A stretch of 64,000 nt of DNA from an uncultured Desulfospira sp. (GCA_963663165.1 OY760175.1:3616001-3680000); one strand, 5' to 3'; positions 20,901 to 38,908 are shown, numbered from the stretch's first letter. Notes: generated from the sequence alone by a model not told the origin. A program made the numbers and translations.

Positions 20901-21194
20901 ACCTTTCTGGAAGACAACAACGTTCCGGCCACCATGGTGAAAAAAGTATCCGCCGGACGGCCCAATGTGGTCGATGCCGTGAAAAACAATGAGATTCAGC
21001 TCATCCTCAACACCGGGGCCTCCAGCCAGACCCAGCGGGACGGATATGAGATCAGGCGGGCGGCCATTAAATATAAAATCCCCTATGCCACCACAACGGA
21101 CGGAACAAGGGCCATCTGCCAGGCCATCCAGGCCATGAAAAAGAAAGCCCTTTCCGTTAAACCCATCCAGGAGTATCACAAGGAAAATGTGTAA
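17970..21194 (+). CDS. carB: Carbamoyl-phosphate synthase large subunit
   Basis: MPKRNDI...[54 protein letters not shown]; duplicated ATP-grasp and MGS domain. Confidence 0.99.
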
Positions 21195-22665: not shown

Positions 22666-22668
22666 CCA

Positions 22669-24210: not shown

Positions 24211-24214
24211 TTCG

Positions 24215-24805: not shown

Positions 24806-24904
24806 TGGATTGTCCTTTCAACCGGCCTGTGTTTGAATACTATAGTGCTGCAAACCCTTTTGACCTACCCTATCGTTTTCAACCATCAATGTCACTGGTT
24901 TATT

Positions 24905-25822
24905 TTAACCCATGCTCAGCCAGATCCCATAGGTAAAGGCCGACAAGATCGTGCAGATGGAAATGGCGGCCACGGAAAAATCGGAATCCCCGCCCATTTC
25001 CCGGGCCATGATATAGGTCAGGGTGGCCGTGGGTGAGGAGAGGATGATCAGGCCGGGCAGGTAATCCTCGGGGGCCGTCCCAAACAGTTTGAACAGCAAA
25101 AGCCCCATGGCCGGAGCCGCCATGGTTTTCAGGAAGCTGGACGCCAGGACGTTTAAAAAGCCGTGTTTGAGCTTTTCAAACGACAGGGAGGCCCCGATGA
25201 TCAGCAACGCCGTGGGAAGGGCCATGCCCTTTAAAATATCCAGGGAGCGGTCCAGGATGACCGGCAGCTTCAGGTTAAGCAGGGAAAAGATGATCCCTGA
25301 CAATGCCGACAGGATAACGGGATTGGTGATGCCGGCTTTTAAGGTGTCCATGAACCGGAAGCGCTCTTTTTCTTTGCGGTTGTGGGCCTGAAGGACTACC
25401 ACGGCCAGGATGTTCTGGACAATCATGACAAATCCGGCAATCAGGGCGGCCCGGACAAACCCGCTGTGGCCCAGGTAATAAAAGGCCACGGCAAGGCCGA
25501 TATATCCCAGATTCCCGTGAAAGGAGCAGTGAATAAAAGAGCCCCTTGACCGTCGGGGAATTTTCAACCCAATGGCCGCTGCCCATGCCACACCGGTAAT
25601 ACAGAACATGGCGGCCAGGGTGGCCAGGATAACGGTGGCATTCAGTTCAGACTTAAGAGAGGCTTTGGAAACCGCGCTGAAAATCATGGCCGGTATGGCA
25701 ATATAGTAAACCAGGCGGTTGGCCTGGTTTACAAAATCCATGGAGATAAAGTCTCTGCGCCGGGCAAAAACCCCCAGAAAGATCACGATAAAAATCGGGA
25801 TGATGGTGGCCAGGATTTCCAT
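24905..25822 (-). CDS. AEC (auxin efflux carrier) family membrane transporter
   Basis: About 10 TM helices; NRLVYYIAIPA, GNLGYIGL, NPVILS, PTALLIIGASL, PTA...MGGD. Confidence 0.9.
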   Translation of the reverse strand: MEILATIIPIFIVIFLGVFARRRDFISMDFVNQANRLVYYIAIPAMIFSAVSKASLKSELNATVILATLAAMFCITGVAWAAAIGLKIPRRSRGSFIHCSFHGNLGYIGLAVAFYYLGHSGFVRAALIAGFVMIVQNILAVVVLQAHNRKEKERFRFMDTLKAGITNPVILSALSGIIFSLLNLKLPVILDRSLDILKGMALPTALLIIGASLSFEKLKHGFLNVLASSFLKTMAAPAMGLLLFKLFGTAPEDYLPGLIILSSPTATLTYIMAREMGGDSDFSVAAISICTILSAFTYGIWLSMG

Positions 25823-25829
25823 GGGTATC

Positions 25830-25903
25830 CTTAGGCTGTCAGGCTAAAGACTGAAGGCTGAAGGTTGCGTTCGTCACCTTCAGCCTAAACCCCTTCAGCC
25901 TAA
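25830..25903. repeat. Inverted heptamer repeats
   Basis: ttaggctgtcaggctaaagactgaaggctgaagg...ccttcagcctaaaccccttcagcctaa. Confidence 0.65.
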
Positions 25904-27289
25904 TTTGGTTTTAATATGAAAAGACTTTGGCCGGGTCAGGTACTCATACCCCACCACAGACAGGGTGCAGCCCCGGCCGGAATTCTTAACCCCGGTCCAG
26001 CCCAGTTCCGGGTCCAGATAGTCACACCGGTTGATGAAAAGGGTCCCGGTATTCACCTGTTGCCCGAGTTCAATCCCCTTGTCATAATCTTTTGTAAAAA
26101 TAGCGGCGGTCAGGCCGAACTCACTGTCGTTCATGAGTTCTACCGCCTCCTCATCAGACGCCACCTTCTGAATTCCCACCACCGGCCCGAAACTTTCCTC
26201 GGTCATCACCCGCATGGTGTGGTTGACGCCGGTCAGAATCTGAGGGGCCAGGTAAGGGGTGCCGGCCTTGTCCATGGGGAAATTTTCGGCCTTGATATGG
26301 GCAACCGCCCCCTGTTCAATGGCTTCTTTGGTCTGCTCCCGGACAAAATCAGCGGCACTGGTCCTGACCAGGGGACCTAAGGTGGTTTCAGGATCATCAG
26401 ACCGGCCAAGCTTTAAGGCATTGACCCATGCAATGGCCTGTTCAAGGAAGTCGTCATACACATCGGCATGGACATAAACCCGTTCAATCCCGCAGCAGGA
26501 CTGGCCGGAATTGAAAAACGCGCCGTCCATGGCCGTGTCCACGGCATGGGGAAGATCGGCATCGGCCCGGACATAGGCCGGGTCCTTGCCGCCAAGTTCC
26601 AGGCCGACATTAATGAACCTTCCGGCAGCCGCCTTTTCCACCATGGCCCCGCCGGGAACAGACCCCGTAAATGCCACATGGTTGATCCGGGCATCTTTGA
26701 TGATGGCTTCGGTATCCCCATGGGTGAGGTGAAGGTACTGGAACACACCTTTGGGCAGGCCTGCCGCCTCAAAGGCCTCAAACAGGCGCTCGGCACAAAG
26801 GGGGGTCTGGGCCGAATGTTTCAAAATTACGGTGTTGCCGGCCAGGATGGCCGGGACAATGGCATTAATAGCGGTCAGATAGGGATAATTCCAGGGGGCA
26901 ATGACAAACACCGTGCCTAAGGGCTCCCGCTGAATCCACCGCTCAAACCCCTCTTTTTCATCCAGTTTCACCGGTGCAAGCCCCTGGTCCGCCAGCCGGA
27001 TCATGGCCCTTGCCCGTTCTTCCAGGCCGTTGACCTCGCCTGCCCCAAACCGGATGGGCCGCCCCATCATCCAGCAAAGTTCTTTGGCGATCTCTTCTTT
27101 TTTGGCCACAAAAGCGTCAACGGCTTTTGTGCATAAGATTTTCCGGTCTGCCAGGGCCGTGGCGGCCCAGGCGCGCTGGGCCTGTTTGGCCTGATCCAGG
27201 GTGGTTTGAATTAACCCCTGATCTGCAAAGGGCCGCTCCACATAGGCAGAATTGTCAACCGGACTGATACATACAAATGAGGATGTCAT
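25895..27289 (-). CDS. NAD(P)-dependent aldehyde dehydrogenase
   Basis: APWNYP, FTGS, LELGGKDP, FNSGQSCC, EESFGPV. Start moved to ATG 27289. Confidence 0.95.
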   Translation of the reverse strand: MTSSFVCISPVDNSAYVERPFADQGLIQTTLDQAKQAQRAWAATALADRKILCTKAVDAFVAKKEEIAKELCWMMGRPIRFGAGEVNGLEERARAMIRLADQGLAPVKLDEKEGFERWIQREPLGTVFVIAPWNYPYLTAINAIVPAILAGNTVILKHSAQTPLCAERLFEAFEAAGLPKGVFQYLHLTHGDTEAIIKDARINHVAFTGSVPGGAMVEKAAAGRFINVGLELGGKDPAYVRADADLPHAVDTAMDGAFFNSGQSCCGIERVYVHADVYDDFLEQAIAWVNALKLGRSDDPETTLGPLVRTSAADFVREQTKEAIEQGAVAHIKAENFPMDKAGTPYLAPQILTGVNHTMRVMTEESFGPVVGIQKVASDEEAVELMNDSEFGLTAAIFTKDYDKGIELGQQVNTGTLFINRCDYLDPELGWTGVKNSGRGCTLSVVGYEYLTRPKSFHIKTKLG

Positions 27290-27547
27290 AACTTCACCTT
27301 TTAAAAATATCCTTAATATGGTTAGACTCAGGTTTAGCCGTCCTATCCTAAAACCGTTTGATTTGCAAGTGAAATCCATCCGGCACACAGGATTAACACG
27401 GACAAAAATTGACTCATTTTTTTGAGGAATAAACCATAAGGGCAATCTCCCGTAAAATGAAGGAAAGCCGGAGAAAAGGAAACCACAGACCGGCCCGCAG
27501 ACTTTCTGTATTCGGATATTATACCACTTGTCAGGGCTCGGCGTTTT

Positions 27548-28654
27548 TTAGATGCAGCAGCCCCTGGCCGTTATGGCTTTTCTCTCCAGGGTACCGTCAG
27601 CCCTTTGAAGGTAAAAGAAATTAAACAGGTTCATGCAAAGGGCTGCATTGACCGGGATAATGCTGATACGGTCTCCCGGGCCAGGTGGATTTTTACACCG
27701 GCTGACATCCACCCAGCCGTGCTCTTCGTGGAGCCGGCATATCCGGGCTTCGGGGTATTCACACACATATCCCATTTCCAGGGCTTCACGGCGCAGCAGC
27801 TGTTTGGCCGAAAGGCTTTTGGAGCCGGCATCTATGATCACCTGGCCCGGAACCCTGTCTGAAACAACCGTTGCCACCATGCGGGCCGCACAATCCTCAA
27901 GGGCGCAATGGTTGAACTTGGCCACAAAATAGTCATTGATATAGGCCGTTCCCACCCGAAGCTCATTGACATGGGCCACCTGGTGGGTATTGAAAAGAGA
28001 CGGGGTGGCGCCTGAAGAGACCATGGGCGGCTCAAGCCCTGCCTTGCATAAGGCGTTATAGGCCGGTTTCCATGACCGGTTAATCTGTTCAAAGCTTTCA
28101 GGGGCTGAGGCGTTGGGGCCGTACAAATGGCCCAGATAAAGCTGGATGCCTTCAAATTCAAGGTACGGGGCGTTTTGGGCGTACCTTGCAAGGGCTGTCA
28201 GTTCATCCGGGTCTGCGGTTCCGCACCGGTGGAGCCCGGCATCAAACATGACATGGATGCCGATGGTTGTATCATGGTCCATTGCGGCCCGGGACAACCA
28301 GTCCATCAGGGACCTTTCGTCAACCGCCACCCGGACGGTGTGGGTTTGGGCAAGGCCTGCGATGATCCGCACCCGTTCATCCCCGAAAGCCGGGTAGGCC
28401 ACGGTGATATCGGTGCCGGGGTGTTCGGCAAGGGCCTGGGCCTCTGTGGCCTTTGCCACCCCGATCCCTGCCCCCCCTGCGGCCAGCTGCATCCGGGTAA
28501 TGGAAAGGGATTTATGGGTTTTGACATGGGGGCGGACCCGGTAGCCGTGGGCCTTGGCATAAGAATGGATCCGGTGGATATTTTTTTCTAAAACAGATTG
28601 GTCTATGACCAGGAAGGGGGTGGGGATTTGGCGGATGTTTTTAATCGTCTCCAT
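27548..28654 (-). CDS. PLP fold-type III enzyme (D-threonine aldolase / D-serine dehydratase / alanine racemase-like)
   Basis: TPFLVID, RPHVKTHKS (PLP lysine), GLHRCG, IIDAGSKSLS, EEHG. Overlaps the upstream NAS stop by 14 nt. Confidence 0.88.
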   Translation of the reverse strand: METIKNIRQIPTPFLVIDQSVLEKNIHRIHSYAKAHGYRVRPHVKTHKSLSITRMQLAAGGAGIGVAKATEAQALAEHPGTDITVAYPAFGDERVRIIAGLAQTHTVRVAVDERSLMDWLSRAAMDHDTTIGIHVMFDAGLHRCGTADPDELTALARYAQNAPYLEFEGIQLYLGHLYGPNASAPESFEQINRSWKPAYNALCKAGLEPPMVSSGATPSLFNTHQVAHVNELRVGTAYINDYFVAKFNHCALEDCAARMVATVVSDRVPGQVIIDAGSKSLSAKQLLRREALEMGYVCEYPEARICRLHEEHGWVDVSRCKNPPGPGDRISIIPVNAALCMNLFNFFYLQRADGTLERKAITARGCCI

Positions 28655-29486
28655 AATCGTCTTTAACCCGTGGTTCGGTTTTGACCACAAAAATGGAGGT
28701 GTTGTTTACCGGGGGATTGGGCCGGACCCGGGTGATCTCCTTAAATCCTGCCGGCAGCTTGAAATCAGCCCCGGCATCCAAAAACCTTCGCAGACCCTTT
28801 TCATAAATCCGGTAGGAAAGGGTGGCGCCTTTGTCAAGTACCTTTAAAAGATGCTCAAAGATCTCCTCTTTGGGGCGGGCATCGGCACCGATCATGATCA
28901 GCTGGCAGGGATCGGCCAGTGGCAGGGAAAAATGGTTGCCGCCGATAATGCGGATCTGCCGGTCAAGGTCCAGGGCATGGATCAGCTGCCGGGACAGGTC
29001 CGCATATTCCCGGCATTGTTCAATGCCGATGCCAAGGATCTGGTACCGGGCACACAGGCTGATCAGGGTCAACGGCAGGGGGCCGCTGCCCAGAAAAACC
29101 ACCCGGTCGCCGGAAGACAGATTTGCCCCGGTATATTCCATCCGGGCAAGCTCCAGGTAATTGGGATAATACACAAACTGTTTGATGGCCTCCCAGGGGG
29201 CGGCCGAATCAATCAGGTCCCGGGCATGGCGCAGTTCCAGGCGCAGTCCGTTGGTTCTTTTGAGCAGGGAAATATGGGCCAGGGCCGGTTGAAGCACGGG
29301 ATCAGCCCGCAGGATCTGTGCCCGGCAGTCATCCATGTCCATTGCCGCCATGCGGTCCAGCCGGCTGAAAAAGGGATAGGCCTCTTCATGCCGGCCCTCA
29401 AGCAAAGACTCCGGATCAATATGGGCCAGGGCATCATAAATATCAAGCACCTCTTTTTTGATAACATCCAGATCAACCATGAACAC
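28641..29486 (-). CDS. Nicotianamine synthase family protein (paralogue 2)
   Basis: FVYYPNYLELARMEY, VVFLGSGPLPLTLI, A.PKEEIF, YR...GLR, VNNTSIFV. Confidence 0.88.
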   Translation of the reverse strand: MFMVDLDVIKKEVLDIYDALAHIDPESLLEGRHEEAYPFFSRLDRMAAMDMDDCRAQILRADPVLQPALAHISLLKRTNGLRLELRHARDLIDSAAPWEAIKQFVYYPNYLELARMEYTGANLSSGDRVVFLGSGPLPLTLISLCARYQILGIGIEQCREYADLSRQLIHALDLDRQIRIIGGNHFSLPLADPCQLIMIGADARPKEEIFEHLLKVLDKGATLSYRIYEKGLRRFLDAGADFKLPAGFKEITRVRPNPPVNNTSIFVVKTEPRVKDDYGDD

Positions 29487-29519
29487 CCTTTCCCTTTTTG
29501 CTTTTACTTAGCCCACCGC

Positions 29520-29668
29520 CTGTGTTTGGACAAAAAATTGCCCAGATGCAAGGCGTAACCTAAAGGTCAGAAACCAGGAAAATGTGCAACCGGAGCAACC
29601 TTTGGGGTTGTGAGGATTGCAGATTTTCCTGCAACGCAGCAGATGGGTGATTTTTCGTCCAAACACTA
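29520..29668. mobile_element. MITE-like palindromic element with GTGTTTGGAC(G/A)AAAA terminal inverted repeats
   Basis: GTGTTTGGACAAAAAATTGCCCAGATGC ... GCAGATGGGTGATTTTTCGTCCAAACACTA. The right end supplies the TAG stop of 29666-30550. Confidence 0.75.
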
Positions 29669-30550
29669 CTTATCGTCAACTTGCATAAAAACCGTGGTAT
29701 TATTGACCCTTCCGGTCGGGGCAATGGCCTGGACGATTTTAAACCCCTTGATATCCTCCGGCTGAACCGGCTTGTACAGCACGGCCTTCATGCCGGTGTA
29801 GGTGCGGAAAATCACCGGGGCCGGCCCCCGTTTTTTCAAGACGTTTAACAGGCTTTCAAAAATCCTGGCCTTAGGCTCGGCCAGGGCCGCCACCAGCATG
29901 ACATCCCAGTCCAGGTCCCCAAGGCCGGCATCATCGCCTTGAACAATCTCAATCTCTTTTTCAAGGCCCAGGCAGCTGATTACTTTTCTGGAGAGTGCCA
30001 CGGTTTCCGGATTGCTGTCAATCCCAATGGACCGGATACCGAAAAAATGGCTCATGAGGATCAAGGTCAATGGCACCGGGCCGGACCCTAAAAATGCCAG
30101 CTTTTTTTCAGGGGAGACGTGCATGGCCTCAATCTGATTTTTGACCAGGGCTTCATACCGGGGATAAAGGGGAAATTCGCTCAGATGCTGCCAGGGATCT
30201 TTGGCGGCAATAAGCTCTTTGGCCAGGTGGACCTCATGGATGCTGAAAAAGGTGGTGTAGTAGGAACGGATCAGGGGAAGCTCCTGGCGGATCTCTTTTT
30301 CGTCCAGGAGCAGCCCTGAAAGGTGGGTTCCGGCGTCCATGTGGGCCAGGTCATCCAGGATCTGGTACATCCGGTACAGCTCTTCGGGAGCAAGGGCCTT
30401 TAACATATCAGGGGAATAATGCCGGATCTTATCGGCAAATCCCATGATATGGGGTTTAATGATGGCAAGGCTGTTCTGGCAGTCTTTGCAGCACCCCAGA
30501 AAATCATGCTCCTTGAGCTCATGTTCGTGGAAAAAATTAATCTCGTGCAT
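29666..30550 (-). CDS. Nicotianamine synthase family protein (paralogue 1, resembling archaeal thermonicotianamine synthase)
   Basis: FPLYPRYEALVKNQ, AFLGSGPVPLT, DVMLVAALAEPKARIF, FRTYTGMKAVLY, GRVNNTTV; His/Cys-rich N-terminus. Confidence 0.9.
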   Translation of the reverse strand: MHEINFFHEHELKEHDFLGCCKDCQNSLAIIKPHIMGFADKIRHYSPDMLKALAPEELYRMYQILDDLAHMDAGTHLSGLLLDEKEIRQELPLIRSYYTTFFSIHEVHLAKELIAAKDPWQHLSEFPLYPRYEALVKNQIEAMHVSPEKKLAFLGSGPVPLTLILMSHFFGIRSIGIDSNPETVALSRKVISCLGLEKEIEIVQGDDAGLGDLDWDVMLVAALAEPKARIFESLLNVLKKRGPAPVIFRTYTGMKAVLYKPVQPEDIKGFKIVQAIAPTGRVNNTTVFMQVDDK

Positions 30551-30582
30551 GGGTCATCCCTAAAAATTGGGGCGCCGGAATA

Positions 30583-31206
30583 CTATTCTTCCTTCCGGCG
30601 GGATTTAAAGTACAGAAAAATCCCCATAAGGCCGAATATGTATCCGATTCCCCCGATAATTTCACTGGGTCCCGGGCCATGTTCGCTCAAATCCGCCACC
30701 ATTTTGGTCAGGGGGGTGATTTTTTTGTTCAAGGATGTTTCCACCGCTTTTTGGACAATGGCTTCAAGTTCTGCTTTATCAATAGAGGGAGCCGTCTCTT
30801 TTGCAGGCGGTGGCGGGGCATCAGCTGCGGCCCCCTGGGACTTATCCGAACCTGCCGCCGGTACGGCATCCTCCGGAATATCCTCAAGGGCAATGGTCCA
30901 CTCTGCCTTGTGCCCCATCCCGGCCAGCAGCTCAATACGCATGGCCGTCCGTTTGGGGAGGGCAAATGAAAACTCCCCGTTATCATCGGTTTTGGTGCGC
31001 AGCAGCTCATTGCCCTGGGTGTCCCATACGATCACTTCCGAGCCCTGGGGTCTTTTTCCGCCGCTGAACTTGCTTTCTCCCAATACCTTATTGCCTTCCA
31101 CCCAGGCAAAAACCGTTACTTTATGGGCCAGGGCAGTGCCGGAAAAAAGAATAAAACAAACCAATAAACAGAATATCGTCACACCATATTTTTGCTTCAT
31201 CGTCAC
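30583..31206 (-). CDS. CbiL/NikL-like accessory Ni/Co transport protein (periplasmic Ig-like domain + C-terminal TM)
   Basis: AHKVTVFAW...KTDDNGEFSF...GMGHKAEW...IIGGIGYIFGLMGI; directly downstream of cbiM. Confidence 0.85.
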   Translation of the reverse strand: MTMKQKYGVTIFCLLVCFILFSGTALAHKVTVFAWVEGNKVLGESKFSGGKRPQGSEVIVWDTQGNELLRTKTDDNGEFSFALPKRTAMRIELLAGMGHKAEWTIALEDIPEDAVPAAGSDKSQGAAADAPPPPAKETAPSIDKAELEAIVQKAVETSLNKKITPLTKMVADLSEHGPGPSEIIGGIGYIFGLMGIFLYFKSRRKEE

Positions 31207-31270
31207 TTCCTATCTGCGCAGGCAGCTGTTTGAAAAGCCAAGCGCGTGTTATTAACGTTTACCCCGGAGT

Positions 31271-31903
31271 CTAACCCAATTCCTGTCTGTTTACGGGTGC
31301 CGGACCCCATTGGGGCAGCAGCTCGGGCCTGACTTTTTTCAAAAACCCCACGCAGGATCCGGTCACCACGCCTTCAATAACCATGACCGGCAGATGGGCA
31401 ACCACAACGGCACAGGCCACTTCAAAGAAATTTTCTTCAGTAAACATGAGGCTGACCGCCACCAGGATGCTGGTTAAGAAAACACTTAAAAAGCCGCAGG
31501 CAAACGACGCGGCAAAAGAAACGGTTCCGCTCTTATGGATAAAAGAGCCGAACAGATAATAACAGATTACGGCGGGCCCTGCGACGTTGACCGTATTGAC
31601 GCCAAGGGTGGTAATTCCCCCAAACTGGAACAGCACCCCCTGGAGCAGCAGGGCAATCAGTATGGCGGGAAAAGCGGCCCACCCCAGCAAAAGCCCTAAA
31701 ATTCCGTTAAGAATCAGGTGGACGCTTGAGGGGCCCACCGGCACATGAATTAAGGACGCCACAAAAAATGCCGCCGACAAAATAGCGGCCTGGGGAACTT
31801 CATCTTCTTTGAGTTTTTTCAGTCCGATCACGGTTCCGGCGGCCGCAATGGCCATGCCGACACCCAGTACGGGAGCTGAAAGAACACCTTCTGAAATATG
31901 CAT
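31271..31903 (-). CDS. cbiM: ECF transporter substrate-binding component CbiM/NikM
   Basis: MHISEGVL N-terminus, AAFFVASLIHVPVGPSSVHL, FGGITTLGVN, HLPVMVIEG. Confidence 0.95.
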   Translation of the reverse strand: MHISEGVLSAPVLGVGMAIAAAGTVIGLKKLKEDEVPQAAILSAAFFVASLIHVPVGPSSVHLILNGILGLLLGWAAFPAILIALLLQGVLFQFGGITTLGVNTVNVAGPAVICYYLFGSFIHKSGTVSFAASFACGFLSVFLTSILVAVSLMFTEENFFEVACAVVVAHLPVMVIEGVVTGSCVGFLKKVRPELLPQWGPAPVNRQELG

Positions 31904-31919
31904 AATACCTTCTTGTTTT

Positions 31920-32036
31920 TTAGCTGTTAGCTATTAGCTGTTAGCCGTTAGCCAGCTGATAGCCGTGGCCAGCCGATAGCAGTTAGCCGGCCGAGACGGT
32001 CTAAAGGCTAACTGCTAAAAGCTAAGGGCTAAAGGC
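31920..32036. repeat. Tandem/inverted heptamer repeats (TAGCTGT / GCTAAAA)
   Basis: tagctgt tagctat tagctgt tagccgt tagc ... gctaact gctaaaa gctaagg gctaaag. Confidence 0.7.
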
Positions 32037-32816
32037 TTATTTACTCTGCCAGTCTTCGAATTTTACCCATATAACGGCACCCAGCTCCACGCCCTTTTCC
32101 TGGCCGTCCTGCTTCATGGTAAAATCAGCTTCGTTAAGGGCGGCAAATCCCCACCATCCGGACTTGGGAGCGGCATAGGTAAAGATGCCGTTGGCATCGG
32201 CCTTGATGGTCTGGGTGACCATATAATCGGTGGGGGCTTCGGACTTGCCGTCTTCATTATAATATTCCACTTCCACTTCGGCATAGGGAACGGCTTTGCC
32301 GTCCAGTTTGACGATGCCCTGGAACACATTGCCGGTATAAAGGGCAAAGGGTTTGGAAAGAGGGACGATTTCGGTTTTCAGGCCGACCTCTTCATCCCAG
32401 CCTTCATCATCGCCGAAAGCCGTGACCACGGTTTTGGTGTAATGAATAATAAAGCAGTCTTCGGCAGGTTCCCAGTAGGGGACAGGTTCCATGTGAAAGG
32501 TATAAACCCCGGGCCTCTGGACTTTGTAATCGGTTTTCCAGGCGGTATGGTCCATTACCTTTGCCTGCTGTAAGGTGCCTAATAAATCTTGTGCCTTGCC
32601 GTTGGCAACAACGGCAAACACTTTGGGTTTAACCAGTTCCATCCCGTGGCCTTCAAAGGGATGGGAAAAAGAGGCGGTAATATGGACGGTCTTGTCTTCA
32701 TCCTGCATGACCATAGCGTCTGAAGGAATGACCATTCCGTAATGGGCCTGAACAGAGGCCAGACCAAAAATCAAACCACAAACCATAACCCCTGATGCCA
32801 GAATCGCTTTTTTCAT
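32037..32816 (-). CDS. DUF4198 periplasmic protein (NikK-like Ni/Co uptake accessory)
   Basis: Signal peptide, mature N-terminal His (AHYGMVIPS), HPFEG, PYWEPAED, GLKTEIVPL, KADANGIF, GWWGFAAL. Confidence 0.92.
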   Translation of the reverse strand: MKKAILASGVMVCGLIFGLASVQAHYGMVIPSDAMVMQDEDKTVHITASFSHPFEGHGMELVKPKVFAVVANGKAQDLLGTLQQAKVMDHTAWKTDYKVQRPGVYTFHMEPVPYWEPAEDCFIIHYTKTVVTAFGDDEGWDEEVGLKTEIVPLSKPFALYTGNVFQGIVKLDGKAVPYAEVEVEYYNEDGKSEAPTDYMVTQTIKADANGIFTYAAPKSGWWGFAALNEADFTMKQDGQEKGVELGAVIWVKFEDWQSK

Positions 32817-33122
32817 AACCTTTTTCTCCTGTGAGTCCTGTGTGTAAAAAAAATACGCAAAATTGCGTTGCCAAATTCGTTACAACCTTCGTGGTTTGAT
32901 TGTTAAAAAATAGCTGACAGACAAAATAACTGGACCGCAGGCTTCGTGCCTGCATTAAAAATTACCTAACTTTGTATATTAAAATCCCGATAGAAGCAAT
33001 GAGAAAAATGGAAACCGAAGACCGTAAAACGGGAGACCGGATGTTGAGAATCCAGCAGGTTACACCCGGGGCGGTGGCCGTGGCCAGTCCGGAATGCAAG
33101 GGCCGAAGGATGTTTCAGTACC

Positions 33123-33160
33123 CAAAAAGGCCGGCATCTTTTCAGATACCGGCCTTTTTC
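33123..33160. terminator. Intrinsic terminator
   Basis: AAAAAGGCCGGcATCT-tttc-AGATaCCGGCCTTTTT. Confidence 0.75.
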
Positions 33161-33187
33161 AGGTTTAAGGAGGGTCGTTATGGCTGT

Positions 33188-33790
33188 TTAGCTGTGTTTT
33201 CCTCTAATGGCGCCGGTCAAAGCAAGCATTCCGGTCCCGAGCAGGGTCAAGGTGCCGGGTACGGGAACTGCGGAGGCTTTTGTAAATACGGCGTAAACCG
33301 CATCGGCTTCATCGGCAGTGCTTTTCGAGGCGCTTAGATATTTTGTAGCAATTTCATCTGAAGGGTCACTGGCATAGTTTCTGGCGTATACCAATGTAAG
33401 ATAGGTGCTGCTCCAAGAGGCTGTATCATAGGCTATATACACTTTTGCTGAAGTCGCAGAATCTTCAATCCCGAACAGTGTGGCGGGATCATTATAATCG
33501 CCTGTAAATACCTGCTCCAGCAATGCCTCGGCCGCTGCTGTCGCAGCCTCTTCCGAATCAAAGTCAAAGGTCCATGTGCCGTTTTCGTAGGTATATGCAT
33601 CATAACCTGTTCCTTCAACAAACTCCACATTGTACAGATCCCCACCAATTTCTACGTTATAGGCTTTAATTATTTCGTTATTGCTGTTAAATTCCAGTGT
33701 TACAGTTGCAGCAGATGCTGTGGAGCAAAAAAATACAGCGCAACCCAACATTACACAGAATGCGGTAAATACGGCCTTGATTTTATTCAT
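33188..33790 (-). CDS. VPLPA/PEP-CTERM sorting-domain surface protein
   Basis: Signal peptide ending ASA; C-terminus VPVPGTLTLLGTGMLALTGAIRGKHS; RBS AAGGAG. Confidence 0.88.
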   Translation of the reverse strand: MNKIKAVFTAFCVMLGCAVFFCSTASAATVTLEFNSNNEIIKAYNVEIGGDLYNVEFVEGTGYDAYTYENGTWTFDFDSEEAATAAAEALLEQVFTGDYNDPATLFGIEDSATSAKVYIAYDTASWSSTYLTLVYARNYASDPSDEIATKYLSASKSTADEADAVYAVFTKASAVPVPGTLTLLGTGMLALTGAIRGKHS

Positions 33791-33924
33791 GTCAAAAACT
33801 CCTTTTTAATATTTGTTATTCCCATTGGCTGAACCCCCGATGTTTAATCGTCGAATAAATGCCGGCCTGTTTCCGGGGCAGGCCGACACAATAAAAGACC
33901 ATGTCATTGAGAATGATATCCTGG

Positions 33925-34570
33925 CTAACCAAGCTTATTTTTCCGGTTCACGCCGGCAATCAGGGCCAGGCCGGAACCCAGCAGAATCAGAGCCGAAGGA
34001 ACCGGTACCGGGGCGGCATCAACCACCACCCAGGCACCGAGGTTGGAGCCGTAAGAACTGTCTGAAACTGCTTTAGTATATTTATTTGAATAACTAATGG
34101 TCTGATTATCCAAATCAAGCTGGATATATATATGTCTGCCTATGGCCGCTGGCACTGGCTTCGTCGTACCGGGCATTATAGTATTCTGCATATCCGATAA
34201 GCGTGCCCCTGGTGTTGGTTCTGGTTGACGCCAGACAAGGCTCAAATGCCGCATAAATCTCTGCCGCACTATAAGAATACAGGTTGGCAATATCATCAGA
34301 CGTTGCCATGCGCCATTCGCCGTATGAGCCGTATTCTTCAGACTCAGACAGTGCGTCAATGGCCGCAAGCTGAGCCGCATAGTACAAGATCACGCCTTCC
34401 GAACTTCTGGAATTGAACATGGCCAGATCCTGGATCCAGTACTGGTTGTTCACATCGTCATAAATTACGCCGTCTCCCATATCTATCAAAGATGCTGAAG
34501 CCGGTCCGGCAAACCAGATCAGGCTTAAAATTAAAATACTTCCCAATTTAATCAACATATGTTTTTTCAT
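33925..34570 (-). pseudogene. Frameshifted (possibly phase-variable) PEP-CTERM surface protein
   Basis: The N-terminal ORF 34115-34570 has the signal peptide. The overlapping frame 33925-34380 carries PVPVPSALILLGSGLALIAGVNRKNKLG. The frames can join at (AT)5, 34124-34133. Confidence 0.85.
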
Positions 34571-34759
34571 TGCATTTTCCTCTTTGTTAAAAAATCGAAT
34601 TACCCATTTTTTGTACTCATCAAAAATTCATAACACGGCTGGGAATAAGGAAAACGTACCCGGAAAGTTGCTGCCCATATTTCCCGCCTTTAAATGGCCG
34701 CAGGCTTTGTTCTTTGAACCTGCCGGCGCAAGACAGGATATATCTTGGCGGCAAAAAAA

Positions 34760-34783
34760 ATGCTGGGACTTTCTTGCTAAATG
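34760..34783 (-). promoter_or_regulatory. PEP-CTERM leader motif (copy C)
   Basis: CATTTAGCAAGAAAGTCCCAGCAT, about 190 nt upstream of the 34570 start. Confidence 0.45.
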
Positions 34784-34902
34784 TTAGCACTTTAGGGAAA
34801 AGGTTCCCATATGAATAGTCTCTGTTTTTTCTTTGACTATCGGCGCAAAACGTTGTATTTTGAAACGTTTTGTAGTTTTACCGATAGACTTATGGAGCTG
34901 AG

Positions 34903-35010
34903 ATGAGAATGACAATATCACCTGCTATCCTTGTGGCGCTGGGACTTGGAGTAATCTTCACCGCTGCGATGATCGGCCTTGCTGTGGCCATCAAAAAGGA
35001 CATGATCTAA
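34903..35010 (+). CDS. 35-aa single-TM small protein
   Basis: MRMTISPAILVALGLGVIFTAAMIGLAVAIKKDMI*; RBS GGAG; TTGACT-17-TATTTT promoter at 34833-34861; terminator directly after. Confidence 0.75.
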   Translation: MRMTISPAILVALGLGVIFTAAMIGLAVAIKKDMI

Positions 35011-35017
35011 TCTCTAT

Positions 35018-35054
35018 AATCCCCCGGTCTCCTGACCGGGGGATTTTTTCTTTT
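35018..35054 (+). terminator. Intrinsic terminator
   Basis: AATCCCCCGGTC-tcct-GACCGGGGGATT followed by a T tract. Confidence 0.85.
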
Positions 35055-35131
35055 CCCTTCTTATCAGCAGTGCCCCATCTTCGCTCATTCAGGCCTTCTC
35101 ACATAGCAACAGTATGCTACGAAGTCCTGAC

Positions 35132-35224
35132 TAACGGCCACGGGCCGCCTTGGTTATCCAACCAAGCACCGCCCACAACAAATAATGAAAGTCTTCTCAA
35201 GATGTTAGTGAGACTTTCTTATAA
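35132..35224 (+). repeat. Dispersed ~90-bp structured intergenic repeat, copy 3
   Basis: TAACGGCCACGGGCCGCCTTGGTTATCCAACCAAGCACCGCCCACAACAAATAATGAAAGTCTTCTCAAGATGTTAGTGAGACTTTCTTATA. Confidence 0.8.
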
Positions 35225-35479
35225 AAACAAATATGAAGCACTGATGAACAGTTACGGACCTTGGTTTTGTTTAGTTTTCAGCATTAGCTGAATAGTTACA
35301 AATTTTTATTTAATCTTTAAAATAACCTCTCTGAATGGTGGTGAACAACATCTCGTTGTGTAAAAACGTTAAGACTAAAATCTAATATGCCGATCCCCAA
35401 ACCTTCTTACCATCTTGGAGATGGCTGCCGTCCCAAGTGGATGCGGTGAAACCACCCATGCCATCCCGAAAGGAACCCC

Positions 35480-38440
35480 ATGAGCAAAGCAGGCTATAGT
35501 ATCCGGACAAAACTGATTGCCATATTTGTACTCATCAAGGTGCTGCCCCTGATTGCCCTGGCCTGGTTTTTCTGGCTCGGGATTTCCCATCTGGCCGACA
35601 GCCTCAATACCCAGACCGCTAAAATGGCCGAAGACTCAGGCCGCCTGGTCGGCGGCATTGCCGATATGGCCACAGGTAACTCCATTGAGGCCCTGGACAA
35701 CCATTCCAGGGAAGCCATTGAACGCCTGACAACGGACACGGCCCGCAGGGTGGCCGCCTTTTTATATGACCGGGACGTGGATATCCGGCAGGCGGCACAG
35801 CTTGATCCCACCCCTGAAAATTTCACTGATTTTCTCTCCAAACGGACCCGGCCGGTTATGCTGGACAACGGCAGCTGGCAAATGGATGAAGCAGGGGAAA
35901 AATGGATACAGACCGCCCCTGAACCCCAAAACACCAAAGACGTAACCGCACGGAACAAGGACAATGAAACCCAGTTTCATTACCGGCCGCCGGAGCCCGA
36001 AGCCCGGATCGAACAGCGCCCCTTATTCCTTGAGATGACCTATGTGGATCTGTCTGGAAAGGAAAAGGTCAAAGTCATCACATCGCATCTGCTGCCCGAT
36101 ACGCTTCTGGATATTTCAAAAAAAGAAAACACCTTTTGCCGGGCGGAGACCTATTTTGAGTCTCTTAAAACCATCACCCCCGAAGACATTTATGTTTCCG
36201 AGGTGATCGGGCCCTATGTCAAGGGGTTCCTCCCCGGAGGGCCTTACAGCAAGGTCCGGGCCAAACAGCGCAACATGGCCTTTGAACCGGAAACCTCGGG
36301 CTATGCCGGAAAGGAAAACCCACTGGGAATACGGTTCCAAGGGCTTATCCGGTGGGCCGCACCGGTGGTAAGCCAGGGAGAAGTCAAAGGGTACGTCACC
36401 CTGGCCCTGGATCATACCCATATCATGGAATTCACCGACCACCTGGTTCCTACCCCGGAACGGTACTGCATTACATCCGATGCCGGCTCGGGCAACTATG
36501 CCTTTATGTGGGATTATAAAGGCCGGAATATCTCCCATCCCCGGGATTATTTTATTTACGGGTATGACCCTGAAACCGGTGAACAGGCGGTGCCGTGGCT
36601 TGAAGCCTCCCTTTATCCCCAATGGCTTGAATGCCGGGGGAGCATGACGGAATTTGAGAAAAAGGTTCCCTGGTTTGATGCCCAGTCTTTAAAGAAAAAA
36701 CCGTCTGCCGAACTCACGGGCCAGGGGTTTGTGGGCCTGGACGGCCGGTTCCTTAATTTTGCCCCCCAGTGTACCGGGTGGCACACCCTGACCCAGCACG
36801 GCGGTTCCGGGTCATTTCTGATTTTCTGGAGCAAGCTGTGGAAACTGACGACAGCGGCCGCCATTCCCTATCATACCGGCATATACAAGGCCCACCCCAG
36901 GGGGTTCGGCTACGTGACCATTGGTGCCAATGTGGACCAGTTTCATAAGCCGGCCGTGGACACTGCCGCCAAAATTGATGCGGTCAAAAAGGCGTTTGAA
37001 AACAACCTTAAACAGCAAAAGGAAGACAACCAGGCCTATATCCGGTCCATCCTCCACAATACCTCCATCAGAATGGCCGTTTATACCCTGCTGATGGTTG
37101 CCCTGGTCATTTTCATTGCCCTGTGGATGGCCGCCGCCCTTACCGGGAAAATCACCCACATGATCCATGGCATCAGAACCTTCAGAGAAGGGGACCGGAC
37201 CTTCCGCCTGACCCAGACATCAACAGATGAAATGGGGCAGCTGGTCTTCTCCTTTAACCAGATGGCCGATAAAATCCAGCAATCCCTTGAGGAAACCGAA
37301 TCGGCCAGGGAAACCGCAGAACAGGCCAATATCCGCCTTAAGACCGAAGTTGCCGACCGAAAGGCGGCCCAGGAAGAGCTTTCCCGTCATAAGGAACATC
37401 TTGAAGACATGGTGAAAGAAAGAACCGCAGAACTTGAAAAACAAATCCTGGAGCGCAAACGGGCTGAAGAAGAGCTGGTACAGTCCGAGAAAATGGCGGC
37501 CTTAGGACAGCTCATTGCCGGCATTGCCCATGAGATCAACACCCCCATGGGTGCCATCAAATCCAGCGGCAGCAATATTTCAGATTCCATCAGCCACCTT
37601 AACGAAGATTTGCCTGCTGTGGCGGCAAGCCTGGAACCCGATCAGTTCAGACTTTTCCAGGACCTGCTCAAAAAGCCTGAACAAAGGGCAACCCTGCTTA
37701 CCAGCCGGGAGGAACGAAAACTCATCCGCAAGGTCAGCGAGACCCTGGCCAATGAAGGGATTGACAACAGCCGGCAGATGGCCTTTTTACTGGTTCAGCT
37801 CAATGCCCATGAAAATGTCGATGATTTTTTCCCCCTTCTCAAGCACAAAAATTCTGAATTTATATTTGAAACCGCTTACGGGCTTTACTCGGTTACCAGC
37901 AACACCGCCAATATCAACCAGGCCGTTGACCGGATCAGCAAAATTATTTATGCCCTCAAATCCTACGTCCGGCAAGGCGATTCCAATGAAAAAACACCAA
38001 CCGATATTGTGGAAGGGATTGAAACCGTTTTGACCATTTACCACAGCCAGATCAAGCAGGATATTGAACTAATCAAAGATGTTAACCCGGTTTCCCCCAT
38101 CATGGGGTACCCCGACGAATTAAACCAGGTATGGACCAATCTGATCCACAATGCCCTCCAGGCCATGGATTATAAGGGGGTGCTGAAAATCACCGTCACG
38201 GACCAGGGCCGGGAAGTGGCCGTGAGTATCAGCGATACCGGATGCGGCATCCCCGAAGAAAACATGGATAAAATTTTTAACCCGTTTTTCACCACAAAAC
38301 CAAGGGGGGAAGGCAGCGGGTTAGGGCTTGATATCATCAAAAAAATCATTGAACGGCATGACGGGAGAATTGGCCTTGACAGTATCGTTGGAAAGGGAAC
38401 CACCTTCACGGTTTTTCTTCCCAAACAGGGAGATGCATGA
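35480..38440 (+). CDS. Membrane sensor histidine kinase (large periplasmic domain, HAMP, HisKA, HATPase)
   Basis: Two TMs, DEMGQL..FNQM HAMP, AGIAHEINTP H-box, NLIHNA, DTGCG, FFTTK, GSGLGL. Confidence 0.95.
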   Translation: MSKAGYSIRTKLIAIFVLIKVLPLIALAWFFWLGISHLADSLNTQTAKMAEDSGRLVGGIADMATGNSIEALDNHSREAIERLTTDTARRVAAFLYDRDVDIRQAAQLDPTPENFTDFLSKRTRPVMLDNGSWQMDEAGEKWIQTAPEPQNTKDVTARNKDNETQFHYRPPEPEARIEQRPLFLEMTYVDLSGKEKVKVITSHLLPDTLLDISKKENTFCRAETYFESLKTITPEDIYVSEVIGPYVKGFLPGGPYSKVRAKQRNMAFEPETSGYAGKENPLGIRFQGLIRWAAPVVSQGEVKGYVTLALDHTHIMEFTDHLVPTPERYCITSDAGSGNYAFMWDYKGRNISHPRDYFIYGYDPETGEQAVPWLEASLYPQWLECRGSMTEFEKKVPWFDAQSLKKKPSAELTGQGFVGLDGRFLNFAPQCTGWHTLTQHGGSGSFLIFWSKLWKLTTAAAIPYHTGIYKAHPRGFGYVTIGANVDQFHKPAVDTAAKIDAVKKAFENNLKQQKEDNQAYIRSILHNTSIRMAVYTLLMVALVIFIALWMAAALTGKITHMIHGIRTFREGDRTFRLTQTSTDEMGQLVFSFNQMADKIQQSLEETESARETAEQANIRLKTEVADRKAAQEELSRHKEHLEDMVKERTAELEKQILERKRAEEELVQSEKMAALGQLIAGIAHEINTPMGAIKSSGSNISDSISHLNEDLPAVAASLEPDQFRLFQDLLKKPEQRATLLTSREERKLIRKVSETLANEGIDNSRQMAFLLVQLNAHENVDDFFPLLKHKNSEFIFETAYGLYSVTSNTANINQAVDRISKIIYALKSYVRQGDSNEKTPTDIVEGIETVLTIYHSQIKQDIELIKDVNPVSPIMGYPDELNQVWTNLIHNALQAMDYKGVLKITVTDQGREVAVSISDTGCGIPEENMDKIFNPFFTTKPRGEGSGLGLDIIKKIIERHDGRIGLDSIVGKGTTFTVFLPKQGDA

Positions 38441-38874: not shown

Positions 38875-38908
38875 GCCCCTTTAACACGAACAAAAATGGT
38901 AAAACAAC

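Follow-up and report, generated by a model that had tools for sequence, protein, structure and literature searches.

The closest known relatives of the nicotianamine-synthase (NAS) family enzymes described here are MtNAS and the Cnt systems. MtNAS of Methanothermobacter thermautotrophicus (3fpe, 3fpg, 3o31), a thermonicotianamine synthase, is known as a single enzyme, and no report of its linkage to a transporter was found in the literature. As far as the accessible part of PMC10248798 and general background describe it, MtNAS adds aminobutyrate units derived from S-adenosylmethionine (SAM) to an amino-acid starter. In the Cnt systems (staphylopine, pseudopaline and yersinopine), one NAS-family enzyme starts a chelator pathway, and a dedicated exporter and a complex-specific importer are encoded. 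ECF-type nickel transporters of the NikKMLQO kind were defined separately, via comparative genomics (PMC545781, PMC2667541). The locus analysed here, in an uncultured, sulfate-reducing Desulfospira sp., is a six-gene operon behind a structured leader RNA.

Operon layout

An earlier note on this DNA had described a same-strand run of six genes, and its order and coordinates hold: on the minus strand of the window (the whole 64,000-nucleotide stretch analysed), nikK-nikM-nikL-NAS1-NAS2-PLP run as one operon from 32816 to 27548. The features are, from 5' to 3':

32971..32999, minus strand: sigma-70-like promoter (TTGCTT, 17-nt spacer, TACAAA; consensus match, read from the sequence)
32846..32956, minus strand: structured leader RNA (model R1, 83.3 bits, E 1.6e-15)
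32037..32816, minus strand: nikK, secreted DUF4198 metal-binding protein (PF10670, 210.7 bits)
31271..31903, minus strand: nikM, ECF S component for Ni/Co (PF01891, CbiM, 203.6 bits)
30583..31206, minus strand: nikL, accessory membrane-anchored subunit (NF058648, 192.9 bits against a cut-off of 100)
29666..30550, minus strand: NAS1, conservative clade (PF03059, 100.6 bits against a cut-off of 27.1)
29519..29665, minus strand: MITE-like repeat of ~147 nt with terminal inverted repeats (blastn against the genome)
28641..29486, minus strand: NAS2, divergent paralogue (PF03059, 107 bits against a cut-off of 27.1)
28690/28654-27548, minus strand: fold-type III PLP enzyme (PF01168 and PF14031)

NAS2 likely starts at the ATG at 29480. 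Starting the PLP gene at the ATG at 28654 gives 368 amino acids, the same as in orthologues, and a 14-nt overlap with NAS2, as had been noted earlier. NAS1 and NAS2 are spaced 179 nt apart by the repeat element, which has dozens of copies in the genome (blastn; >60 matches listed, the top ones at 87-95% identity), and the gap including the repeat folds into a hairpin of -64.3 kcal/mol. In the closest relative (locus L019, ~90% protein identity) the same gap measures just 50 nt. The block common to L019 and the window is exactly nikK to PLP and both flanks differ, so the cassette appears to move as a block. The same kind of arrangement was found again in dozens of loci in other genomes, a recurrence that is far from chance. 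Because the terminator arm of the window's leader has been replaced and a repeat lies between NAS1 and NAS2, co-transcription of all six genes is not assured.

Paired nicotianamine-synthase-type enzymes and a PLP enzyme

Scored over the whole protein, NAS1 and NAS2 each reach about four times the PF03059 gathering cut-off of 27.1 bits. Both align with MtNAS across the whole catalytic domain (NAS1 with 3fpe, E 1.1e-47, 166 bits; NAS2, E 1.8e-29, 106.6 bits) and share 32% identity with each other. The catalytic Glu (chain position 81; Gln in 3fpg, a variant) and Tyr (107) of MtNAS correspond to E106 and Y132 of NAS1 and to E84 and Y110 of NAS2; these residues are invariant among 20 aligned NAS1 and 19 aligned NAS2 sequences, respectively, as is the glycine-rich SAM motif in both clades. 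The equivalent residues of AtNAS1, E77 and Y106, are described as essential in the accessible part of PMC10248798. By their Pfam scores and MtNAS alignments, both ORFs belong to the NAS family proper, as the earlier note had proposed, and not to the ordinary methyltransferases, and both are predicted to be active SAM aminocarboxypropyl (aminobutyrate) transferases. NAS1 also has a conserved His/Cys-rich N-terminus (H8, H10, C20, C21 and C24). In the tree, NAS1 and NAS2 fall into a pair of ancient sister clades that both include bacteria and archaea (97% support for the NAS2 clade), and the MtNAS clade (P0259, 263.6 bits to 3fpe) falls outside both.

The NAS pair is the unit. Two adjacent NAS matches were present in 5/5 NAS-positive genomes among 61 relatives searched and in 8/8 genomes above cut-off among 401 genomes of the phylum, and NAS1 lies directly 5' of NAS2 in 57 of the 70 loci with at least 1 kb upstream.

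The PLP gene follows NAS2 on the 3' side in 29/57 loci with enough downstream sequence. Among the 61 relatives, its close orthologues are confined to NAS-bearing genomes; orthologues with 58-70% identity are also present elsewhere in genomes where the gene does not adjoin NAS. The protein matches Ala_racemase_N (PF01168, 95.5 bits) and D-ser_dehydrat (PF14031, 51.5 bits), its best solved relative is 6qkb (121.6 bits), and its HVKTHK aligns with the PLP lysine motif of 6qkb. These matches place the enzyme in the D-threonine aldolase, D-3-hydroxyaspartate aldolase and D-serine dehydratase group, fold-type III. Of the proposal that it supplies a D-amino acid in the manner of CntK, the handling of a D-amino acid is plausible; a racemase role is not supported, as the aldolase/dehydratase group is no racemase family and is unrelated to CntK. 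It is a relative of BhcC, and orthology was rejected (NF045642, 145.3 bits against a cut-off of 690).

Linkage to nickel and cobalt transport

The nikM product scores 284 bits against the NCBIfam CbiM equivalog NF004905 (cut-off 173) and begins MHISEG, with Met1-His2 as in TtNikM2. Within the accessible part of PMC3945884, this N-terminus has a metal-binding role, and NikM-type S components take the bare ion and not a chelate, larger molecules being excluded; import of a chelator complex by the ECF unit is therefore unlikely. NikK has a signal peptide followed by HYGMVIPSD, and the accessible part of PMC12663993 characterizes a DUF4198 protein as periplasmic and metal-binding. Genes for CbiQ/NikQ and the ATPase (NikO) are absent from the window operon, and all six CbiQ matches in the genome lie elsewhere. 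A complete paralogous nik operon lies 1.67 Mb away (C1:1.977-1.981 Mb), and its NikM is 71% identical to that of the window. What had been read as an ECF Ni/Co uptake operon with a 'cbiL-like' gene therefore contains NikK, NikM and NikL, the 'cbiL-like' gene belonging to the NikL family (NF058648), and lacks the CbiQ and ATPase genes; of an importer for Ni(II)/Co(II) of the ECF type, it encodes the substrate-capture part alone. A search for NikR gave no gene, and the window has no NikR box with two or fewer mismatches.

Bacteria and archaea alike conserve the linkage of NAS genes to Ni/Co transport, in agreement with the linkage to metal transporters claimed earlier. Of the 31 loci with 6 kb or more of flanking sequence on each side, 16 have a NikM gene no more than 10 kb away; the other 15 lack one inside that distance. 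Desulfobacter and Desulfospira joergensenii have nikKMLQO-NAS1-NAS2, Desulfosarcina has cbiM-cbiQ-fused ATPase-NAS1-NAS2-PLP, NaphS2 and Desulfatiglandales have a divergent nik operon at the NAS locus, and in ANME-1 and ANME-2c archaea nikKMLQO adjoins a NAS gene. Because these arrangements vary, they argue for a functional link and not for shared descent alone. Other NAS loci encode NicO, a Nik/Opp-type ABC system with a TonB receptor, FecCD with Peripla_BP_2, or ExbB, CbiX and ChlI/D-like chelatase genes. A UbiE-type methyltransferase is also recurrent at NAS loci, and its orthologues adjoin NAS genes in other genomes.

A structured leader RNA and its regulon

The -35 box (TTGATT-type) and 17-nt spacing of the promoter are kept in five aligned relatives. 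Downstream of it, the leader consists of hairpin H1 (GCAGGC-ACGAA-GCCTGC), a conserved box on its 3' side (AAACCACGAAGGTTG), and then a short hairpin (ACGCAA/TTGCGT) and eight U just 5' of the nikK ribosome-binding site. In most relatives this box supplies the 5' arm for a strong terminator (-17 to -27 kcal/mol in 6/9 folded instances); in the window copy the terminator's 3' arm has been replaced. Across 37 aligned instances, in an alignment fitted to model R1 and so favouring covariation, 98% of cells are paired, against 32-60% with partners slid, all six pairs of H1 show changes on both sides, and the covariation score was reached by 0/500 shuffles. Covariation and the terminator platform suggest a structured cis-regulatory RNA of the attenuator or riboswitch type. 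It had no overlapping match in Rfam 15 (4227 families, E <= 1, window positions 20000-40000), and six loci holding full leader instances gave zero Rfam matches; a structured leader RNA without an Rfam match ahead of this operon is new.

Model R1, built from seven sequences chosen by motif, matches 73/121 relatives at E <= 0.01, although its weak matches may be generic terminators. In other genomes, the 29 top-scoring matches have as their first downstream ORF NikK (21), NikM (2), Peripla_BP_2 (2), or a methyltransferase, TonB receptor, TrmO_N protein or fumarase (one each). The Desulfospira genome itself has four leader sites: ahead of the nikK operon in the window, of a UbiE-type methyltransferase, of an AraC regulator followed by a TonB-dependent receptor, and of an importer composed of FecCD, an ABC ATPase and a periplasmic binding protein. 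At NAS loci of other genomes, the leader stands directly 5' of NAS1 (L091), of MT-NAS1-NAS2-PLP (L029), of a methyltransferase (L024 and L053), of a TonB receptor that follows NAS2 (L055) or of FmdE-FecCD (L069 and L062).

The genome also has eight canonical cobalamin riboswitches, all at sites other than the leader's. In the six with the first downstream ORF scanned, this encodes a TonB receptor, a Peripla_BP_2-CbiZ fusion, a ThiC-like radical SAM protein, Glycos_transf_3 or an AraC regulator (two cases). Since these riboswitches sit elsewhere and the six scanned precede other genes, the leader regulon is distinct from them. Cobamide uptake, too, classically combines a TonB receptor with a FecCD set; the metal might be cobalt, or what is imported might be another species. 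The leader, the recurrent methyltransferase and the archaeal distribution are observations beyond the earlier note.

A proposed chelator regulon and its alternatives

The reading that we favour, at a probability of roughly 0.6, is a regulon linked to Ni/Co in which a nicotianamine-like chelator is produced and probably taken back up. The presence of one leader ahead of the methyltransferase, the AraC-TonB receptor genes and the FecCD importer argues for it; NikM-type proteins bind the naked ion, so that the commonest transporter partner needs no chelator, and this counts against it, as do the 15/31 well-flanked loci without NikM, the lack of a recurrent exporter family near NAS genes in 32 loci, the single NAS gene of ANME-1 loci and the overlap with cobamide uptake. 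The most likely product of NAS1, NAS2 and the PLP enzyme would be a polyamino-carboxylate chelator resembling nicotianamine or thermonicotianamine, probably with one aminobutyrate unit added by each NAS to a starter amino acid, and the PLP enzyme may supply that starter, such as a D-beta-hydroxy amino acid from an aldol condensation. The two NAS enzymes might act in sequence or as a heterodimer, as the earlier note had suggested. The chelator would be made, modified and then released, and the metal recovered partly as a complex via the TonB receptor and ABC importer and partly as a free ion via NikK and NikM. NikK, NikM and NikL would form the capture half of the ECF importer, with NikQ and NikO presumably shared from the distant complete nik operon, or NikKML would act alone. 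The earlier interpretation is thus supported in part, and the scavenging role that it assigned to the product fits the TonB receptor and chelate-type ABC importer of the leader regulon.

The strongest competitor, which we consider unlikely but worth weighing, is a cytoplasmic acceptor or buffer: the NAS product would stay inside, take Ni(II)/Co(II) from the inner face of NikM, keep it dissolved and innocuous despite the sulfide-rich cytoplasm, and pass it to hydrogenase, CODH, cobamide or F430 maturation. Nicotianamine inside plant cells offers a parallel. Consistent with this, no exporter family recurs near NAS genes in 32 loci (the window encodes an AEC-family transporter two genes downstream, and even L019 does not conserve it), bare ions are the substrate of ECF Nik and NicO, the partners seen most often, archaeal loci encode chelatase or amidase genes (CbiX, CobB/CfbB-like) alongside NAS, and the conserved His/Cys-rich N-terminus of NAS1 is cytoplasmic. 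However, the same leader precedes TonB receptors and chelate-type ABC importers both in this genome and at NAS loci, which is hard to explain if there is nothing outside to re-import, and NaphS2-type loci have an outer-membrane porin inside the nik operon.

A division of labour in which one NAS is catalytic and its paralogue a non-catalytic scaffold or regulator, or in which the two make separate products, seems improbable. NAS2 is far more divergent than NAS1 (106.6 versus 166 bits to MtNAS), ANME-1 loci have a single NAS gene, of the NAS2 clade, so a second enzyme is not always needed locally, and ANME-2 loci have two genes, both of the NAS2 clade; but the catalytic Glu and Tyr and the SAM motif are invariant in both clades, purifying selection on both is clear, and the NAS1 and NAS2 trees mutually agree. 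A product with no metal role (an aminocarboxypropylated solute or cofactor precursor beside nik by accident of operon shuffling) would accommodate the 15/31 well-flanked loci without NikM but is very improbable given four linked classes of Ni/Co or chelate transporters in many arrangements in both domains and a leader common to NAS genes and nikK/nikM operons. The coupling of NAS-type enzymes to a nickel/cobalt importer, which methane-cycling archaea also have, may reveal how anaerobes acquire nickel and cobalt where sulfide locks metals away.

Comparison with known systems

The window NAS proteins share Pfam family, length class and the catalytic Glu and Tyr with MtNAS but occur as two paired paralogues, and NAS1, unlike MtNAS, has the extra His/Cys N-terminus. 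As in the Cnt systems, a NAS-family enzyme would start a chelator pathway co-encoded with metal import genes, possibly with use of a D-amino acid, and some related NAS loci carry the TonB receptor and Nik/Opp-type ABC importer of Cnt operons. The differences from Cnt are several. The window NAS proteins score 43.1 and 28.5 bits against the CntL equivalog NF033601 (cut-off 350), and there are two of them with no exporter nearby. For CntM, noted earlier as lacking, PF10100 had no match in the 6.74-Mb, 96.7%-complete genome, but the control search matched 0/14 control genomes; among the clustered neighbours of NAS loci a CntM-type gene is likewise absent. A fold-III PLP enzyme takes the place of the DapF-type CntK, and the chief transport partner is an ECF S unit, with chelate-type importers confined to a subset of loci and to other parts of the leader regulon. 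Cnt genes have a Zur- or Fur-type box, whereas the window operon has an RNA leader of presumed regulatory role.

NikK (DUF4198), NikM with its MH N-terminus and NikL occur in the usual NikKMLQO order, with biosynthetic genes in place of NikQ and NikO. The leader resembles attenuating riboswitches and leaders (cobalamin, NiCo) in having a conserved 5' structure that overlaps an intrinsic terminator ahead of transport or biosynthesis genes, and differs from known riboswitches in being very small, with one WGAA-loop hairpin and the terminator.

Operon organization and flanks

The two NAS genes lie in a run of six co-directional ORFs on the minus strand (32816-27548), with intergenic gaps from nikK to NAS2 of 133, 64, 32 and 179 nt, in that order. 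Both ORFs belong, as the earlier note had proposed, to the nicotianamine synthase family, and the 14-nt overlap it described between NAS2 and the gene for a fold-type III PLP enzyme is true if the latter starts at ATG 28654.

Features of the nik-NAS operon, in order of transcription
nikK, minus strand: DUF4198 (Pfam, 210.7 bits)
nikM, minus strand: CbiM (Pfam, 203.6 bits) and CbiM equivalog (NCBIfam, 284 bits)
nikL, minus strand: NF058648 (NCBIfam, 192.9 bits)
NAS1, 29666-30550, minus strand: PF03059, 100.6 bits against a cut-off of 27.1
Repeat of ~147 nt, 29519-29665, minus strand: terminal inverted repeats GTGTTTGGAC...GTCCAAACAC, occupying the NAS1-NAS2 gap
NAS2, minus strand: PF03059, 107 bits against the same cut-off
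PLP enzyme gene, minus strand: Ala_racemase_N and D-ser_dehydrat domains (Pfam)

The preceding PEP-CTERM gene is terminated at 33124-33159 by a strong U-tailed hairpin, which places the start of the operon at nikK. The region directly upstream (33188-34570, minus strand) encodes small PEP-CTERM-type secreted proteins unrelated to the nik-NAS operon and ends in a strong terminator. In the closest relative, L019 (~90% identity), the common block is exactly nikK to the PLP gene and both flanks are different. The aldehyde dehydrogenase, AEC-family transporter and small methyltransferase encoded downstream (27445-24215) were rejected as operon members, being conserved in no related locus. A generic promoter and terminator scan returned numbers at shuffled-sequence level (9 versus 8.5 and 14 versus 14.6, respectively). 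The 179-nt NAS1-NAS2 gap folds into a hairpin of -64 kcal/mol, and the repeat within it, which could affect co-transcription, has >60 genomic matches listed by blastn (the best at 87-95% identity) and is missing from the same gap in the closest relative.

Distribution and gene linkage

NAS1 and NAS2 each have >120 cluster representatives (61-89% and 51-91% identity, respectively), and named relatives come from Desulfobacter, Desulfospira, Desulfonema, Desulfosarcina and similar organisms. Cultured carriers include Desulfobacter curvatus, Desulfospira joergensenii, Desulfosarcina variabilis and Desulfonema magnum. With each species represented by one genome, a scan yielded 80 loci, including Desulfobacterales, Desulfatiglandales, Methanothrix, Methanosarcinaceae, ANME-1, ANME-2 and ANME-3. 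Occurrence is sparse: 5 of 61 relatives are NAS-positive, all five with adjacent pairs, and 8 of 401 genomes of the phylum exceed the cut-off, always as two adjacent matches, one case being truncated at a contig end. NAS1 directly precedes NAS2 in 57 of the 70 loci with at least 1 kb available upstream, most exceptions being archaeal and one (L057) a false miss, and a PLP gene follows NAS2 in 29 of the 57 loci with at least 1.3 kb available downstream.

The linkage to Ni/Co transport drawn in the earlier note is conserved across bacteria and archaea, with NikM in 16 of the 31 loci having at least 6 kb available on each side. Several arrangements are found: nikKMLQO-NAS1-NAS2(-PLP); nikK-nikL-cbiM-cbiQ-fused ATPase-NAS1-NAS2-PLP; NAS1-NAS2 adjoining a divergent nikK-porin-nikMLQO; and a NAS2-clade gene adjoining archaeal nikKMLQO. 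Clustering of neighbours within ~7 kb of 32 loci gave, counted as loci, ABC ATPases (20), the PLP enzyme (14), NikM (13), NikK (12), NikL (12), CbiQ (11), Peripla_BP_2 (4), FmdE-like proteins (4), and FecCD, ExbB with DUF3450, tetrapyrrole methylase and amino-acid permease (3 each). A UbiE-type methyltransferase adjoins the NAS genes in 8 of these 32 loci, ANME-1 included. NicO, a Nik/Opp-type ABC system with a TonB receptor, CbiX, and ChlI/D-like and CobB/CfbB-like genes are neighbours at single loci. Among individual archaeal loci, nikKMLQO, NAS, methyltransferase and a CobB/CfbB-like amidase occur together in L093 (ANME-1), and two NAS2-clade genes lie ~0.7 kb apart in L094, L096 and L098 (ANME-2 type), with a CbiX-type chelatase gene on the opposite strand between the two in L094.

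NAS paralogues and the PLP enzyme

NAS1 and NAS2, the only NAS genes in their genome, share 32% identity. Both align with MtNAS, the thermonicotianamine synthase of Methanothermobacter thermautotrophicus (E = 1.1e-47 for NAS1 and 1.8e-29 for NAS2), and both match CntL of the staphylopine-type pathway only remotely. MtNAS chain position 81, Gln in the 3fpg variant, is Glu in both proteins (NAS1 E106, NAS2 E84), and the Tyr at position 107 corresponds to Y132 and Y110; these residues are unchanged throughout alignments of 20 NAS1-type and 19 NAS2-type proteins. The corresponding residues of AtNAS1 are described as essential in PMC10248798. Both enzymes are probably catalytically active. Upstream of the MtNAS-alignable part, NAS1 carries a His/Cys-rich stretch (H8, H10, C20, C21 and C24 within residues 1-30) that is kept across its clade and may be metal-binding or regulatory. 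Prediction of a NAS1-NAS2 complex gave an ipSAE of 0.00 in two runs without controls, which bears neither way on a heteromer.

Trees of 161 family members (FastTree) and 63 members (IQ-TREE, LG+C20, quick search) both resolve a NAS1 clade (support 99 and 83) and a NAS2 clade (98 and 97). Each mixes bacteria with Methanothrix and Methanosarcinaceae, and ANME sequences fall in the NAS2 clade only. Branching orders within the two clades are largely congruent, as expected for pairwise inheritance. Of the reference synthases that the earlier note wanted in a tree (MtNAS, CntL and plant NAS), these unrooted trees place MtNAS, whose clade (recognised via P0259, 263.6 bits to 3fpe) lies outside both (support 87).

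The closest solved relatives of the PLP enzyme are D-3-hydroxyaspartate aldolase (6qkb, 121.6 bits), D-threonine aldolases, D-serine dehydratase and D-threo-3-hydroxyaspartate dehydratase; orthology to BhcC was rejected (145 bits against a cut-off of 690). Close orthologues (67-100% identity) are restricted, among 61 relatives, to the three NAS-positive genomes that belong to the window's genus, and in each the PLP gene abuts NAS2. Non-adjacent orthologues (58-70% identity) occur in two further cases: Desulfobacter curvatus has the gene on a different contig and NaphS2 has it ~8 kb off. To our knowledge, every characterised member of the group uses D-beta-hydroxy-alpha-amino acids as substrates, which makes a D-configured starter, from aldol condensation or other processing by the PLP enzyme, plausible. 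The earlier suggestion that this enzyme supplies a D-amino acid is plausible in that form; a racemase role is not indicated, alanine racemase being a much weaker match (31.7 bits).

A leader RNA upstream of nikK

In six Desulfobacteraceae loci the sequence ahead of nikK has three elements in common: a sigma-70-like promoter, a hairpin (H1) and a conserved box, AAACCAYGAAGGTTG. This leader, absent from the earlier note and found in the follow-up, is built of a 6-bp hairpin (WGAA loop) and a terminator with the 5' arm AAACCAYGAAGGTT, joined by a linker of 24-121 nt. Most relatives have a strong intrinsic terminator here (-17 to -27 kcal/mol), in which the box forms the 5' arm and CCTTYGTGGTTT, followed by a U run, the 3' arm. 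In the window copy the 3' arm is swapped for a short hairpin and eight U, and regulation there may be different or less tight.

A covariance model (R1) was built from seven instances. At E <= 0.01 it has matches in 73 of 121 relatives; its E-values are rough, and low-scoring hits may be ordinary terminators. Across 37 aligned instances the WGAA loop is closed by C-G and all six hairpin pairs show changes on both sides. Pairing holds in 98% of cells against 32-60% with slid partners, and none of 500 shuffles scores as high as the real pairing, in an alignment fitted to R1, which favours this result. The leader has no match in Rfam. Two simpler searches were uninformative: a loose motif regex was too degenerate, and a 16-nt H1 pattern, too short for metagenomes, had NikK or NAS in 0 of 80 loci among the matches listed. 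A reading of H1 as a sigma-54 promoter was dropped because of the RNA-like covariation of the stem, the sigma-70-like promoter upstream and a poor pattern fit: of six aligned upstream regions, GGCAYG-N4-YTGC fits just those of the window and L022 and fails in the other four because GT replaces the -12 GC. We regard the leader as a candidate for a riboswitch, or for an attenuator that depends on a protein, in a Ni/Co-linked regulon. In L022 (Desulfospira joergensenii, 4990-5331), tandem leaders precede nikK, one full (82.5 bits) and one weaker (29.6 bits) with its own promoter-like boxes, in a layout that resembles tandem riboswitch arrangements.

The putative leader regulon

The leader ties the nik-NAS genes to a methyltransferase, a TonB receptor and a chelate-type ABC importer, both in the window's own genome (G000, contig C1), which has four R1 sites, and in other genomes.

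Leader sites and the genes behind them
32846-32956 of the window, minus strand: nik-NAS operon (83 bits)
G000:C1:5358642-5358835: methyltransferase (80 bits)
G000:C1:1290561-1290668: AraC and TonB receptor (44 bits), the receptor at C1:1.292 Mb
G000:C1:2263595-2263691: FecCD, ATPase and Peripla_BP_2 (35 bits), the operon at C1:2.26 Mb
Locus L091: before NAS1 and, divergently, before nikK
Locus L029: before methyltransferase-NAS1-NAS2-PLP
Loci L024 and L053: before a methyltransferase
Locus L055: before a TonB receptor directly after NAS2
Loci L069 and L062: before FmdE-FecCD

Among the 29 best R1 matches in other genomes, 23 precede nikK or nikM operons; the first downstream ORF is NikK in 21, NikM in 2 and Peripla_BP_2 in 2, with single cases of a methyltransferase, a TonB receptor, TrmO_N and fumarase. 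Leader instances also lie in loci L234-L263, with a full one in L235. The box 15-mer has just two copies in the window's genome, the second ~100 nt upstream of an orthologue of the UbiE-type methyltransferase (53% identity to those adjoining NAS genes). This 273-aa protein, encoded behind a leader outside the window (G000:C1:5357854-5358582, locus L220), is probably a fourth pathway enzyme, in this genome encoded apart from the operon.

The genome also has eight canonical cobalamin riboswitches, all away from leader sites. The six scanned for their first ORF precede a TonB receptor, a Peripla_BP_2-CbiZ fusion, a ThiC-like radical SAM protein, Glycos_transf_3 and two AraC regulators, and the leader regulon is therefore apart from them. 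We note that four cobalamin riboswitches lie within 26 kb at G000:C1:717888-737092, outside the window, two of them before AraC-family regulators, an unusual target of this class.

Transport genes, metal regulators and proposed function

NikM begins with MHISEG. According to PMC3945884, TtNikM2 binds a bare Ni(II) ion through Met1, His2 and His67, and its N-terminal loop excludes larger molecules. NikK has a signal peptide, and one DUF4198 protein is reported in PMC12663993 to be a periplasmic metal-binding protein. The window operon contains no CbiQ or ATPase gene, and the six CbiQ matches of the genome all lie elsewhere. A complete second operon (C1:1.977-1.981 Mb) encodes NikK, NikM (71% identity to the window NikM), a 211-aa ORF at the position of NikL, CbiQ and an ATPase. 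The genome has no NikR and no NikR_C domain, in a search whose control matched in 5 genomes; NikR boxes of the delta-proteobacterial type (half-sites from PMC545781, <=2 mismatches) number 0 in the window and 17 elsewhere in the genome. CntM has no match in the genome, and its control search was likewise silent.

The NAS pair is present in nearly all bacterial loci examined, with the PLP enzyme tightly associated, and the NAS genes show conserved linkage to Ni/Co import genes. We favour, at a probability of roughly 0.6, a nicotianamine-like chelator made by the NAS pair and the PLP enzyme, released from the cell and then re-imported for Ni and/or Co acquisition. The PLP enzyme would provide a starter to which each NAS adds one aminobutyrate, and the product might be methylated after assembly. 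The ECF unit would receive metal from the chelator, perhaps via NikK, or operate in parallel, since NikM takes the bare ion alone.

In the main rival reading, which we consider less likely, the NAS product is instead a purely cytoplasmic metal acceptor or buffer, a role consistent with the absence of any recurrent exporter family among the neighbours within ~7 kb of 32 loci. An extension of the released-chelator reading is offered tentatively: an ancient two-synthase pathway for a dedicated Ni/Co chelator, common to sulfate reducers and to archaea of the methane cycle (Methanothrix, Methanosarcinaceae, ANME-1 and ANME-2). Its enzymes would be NAS1, NAS2 and a methyltransferase, in many cases together with a D-amino-acid PLP enzyme. 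The released chelator would pull Ni or Co from sulfide minerals, and bacterial re-uptake would proceed via the TonB receptor and FecCD-type importer. The small hairpin-plus-terminator leader would represent a new class of riboswitch, responding to Ni(II)/Co(II) or to the chelator with its metal bound, and would substitute for NikR in these bacteria.

Significance and comparison with known systems

Demand for Ni and Co is high for hydrogenases, CO dehydrogenase/acetyl-CoA synthase and cobamides, and in archaea for F430, and sulfide renders both metals nearly insoluble in the habitats of these organisms. The analysis provides three things open to direct test: a conserved gene set with plausible chemistry, a defined regulon pointing to candidate uptake genes, and a small RNA element suited to in vitro probing. 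Given the common occurrence in sulfate reducers and in ANME or methanogen archaea, one may ask whether the partners in methane-oxidising consortia share these metals or compete for them.

A review by Laffont and Arnoux (2020, Metallomics) reportedly covers gene neighbourhoods of cntL/NAS and may already mention such clusters. The literature searched described no Ni or Co chelator of strict anaerobes and nothing fitting a nickel or ECF riboswitch candidate; titles and abstracts gave no account linking nicotianamine synthesis to ECF nickel transport, nor did term searches of PMC7438024 and PMC12454661 bring up anything on NAS-ECF linkage. NAS-derived chelators as such are already known. As far as the literature was searched, what appears to be new is the obligatory enzyme pair, its PLP and methyltransferase partners, the coupling to ECF transport, the spread of NAS into methanogens and ANME archaea, and the RNA leader regulon.
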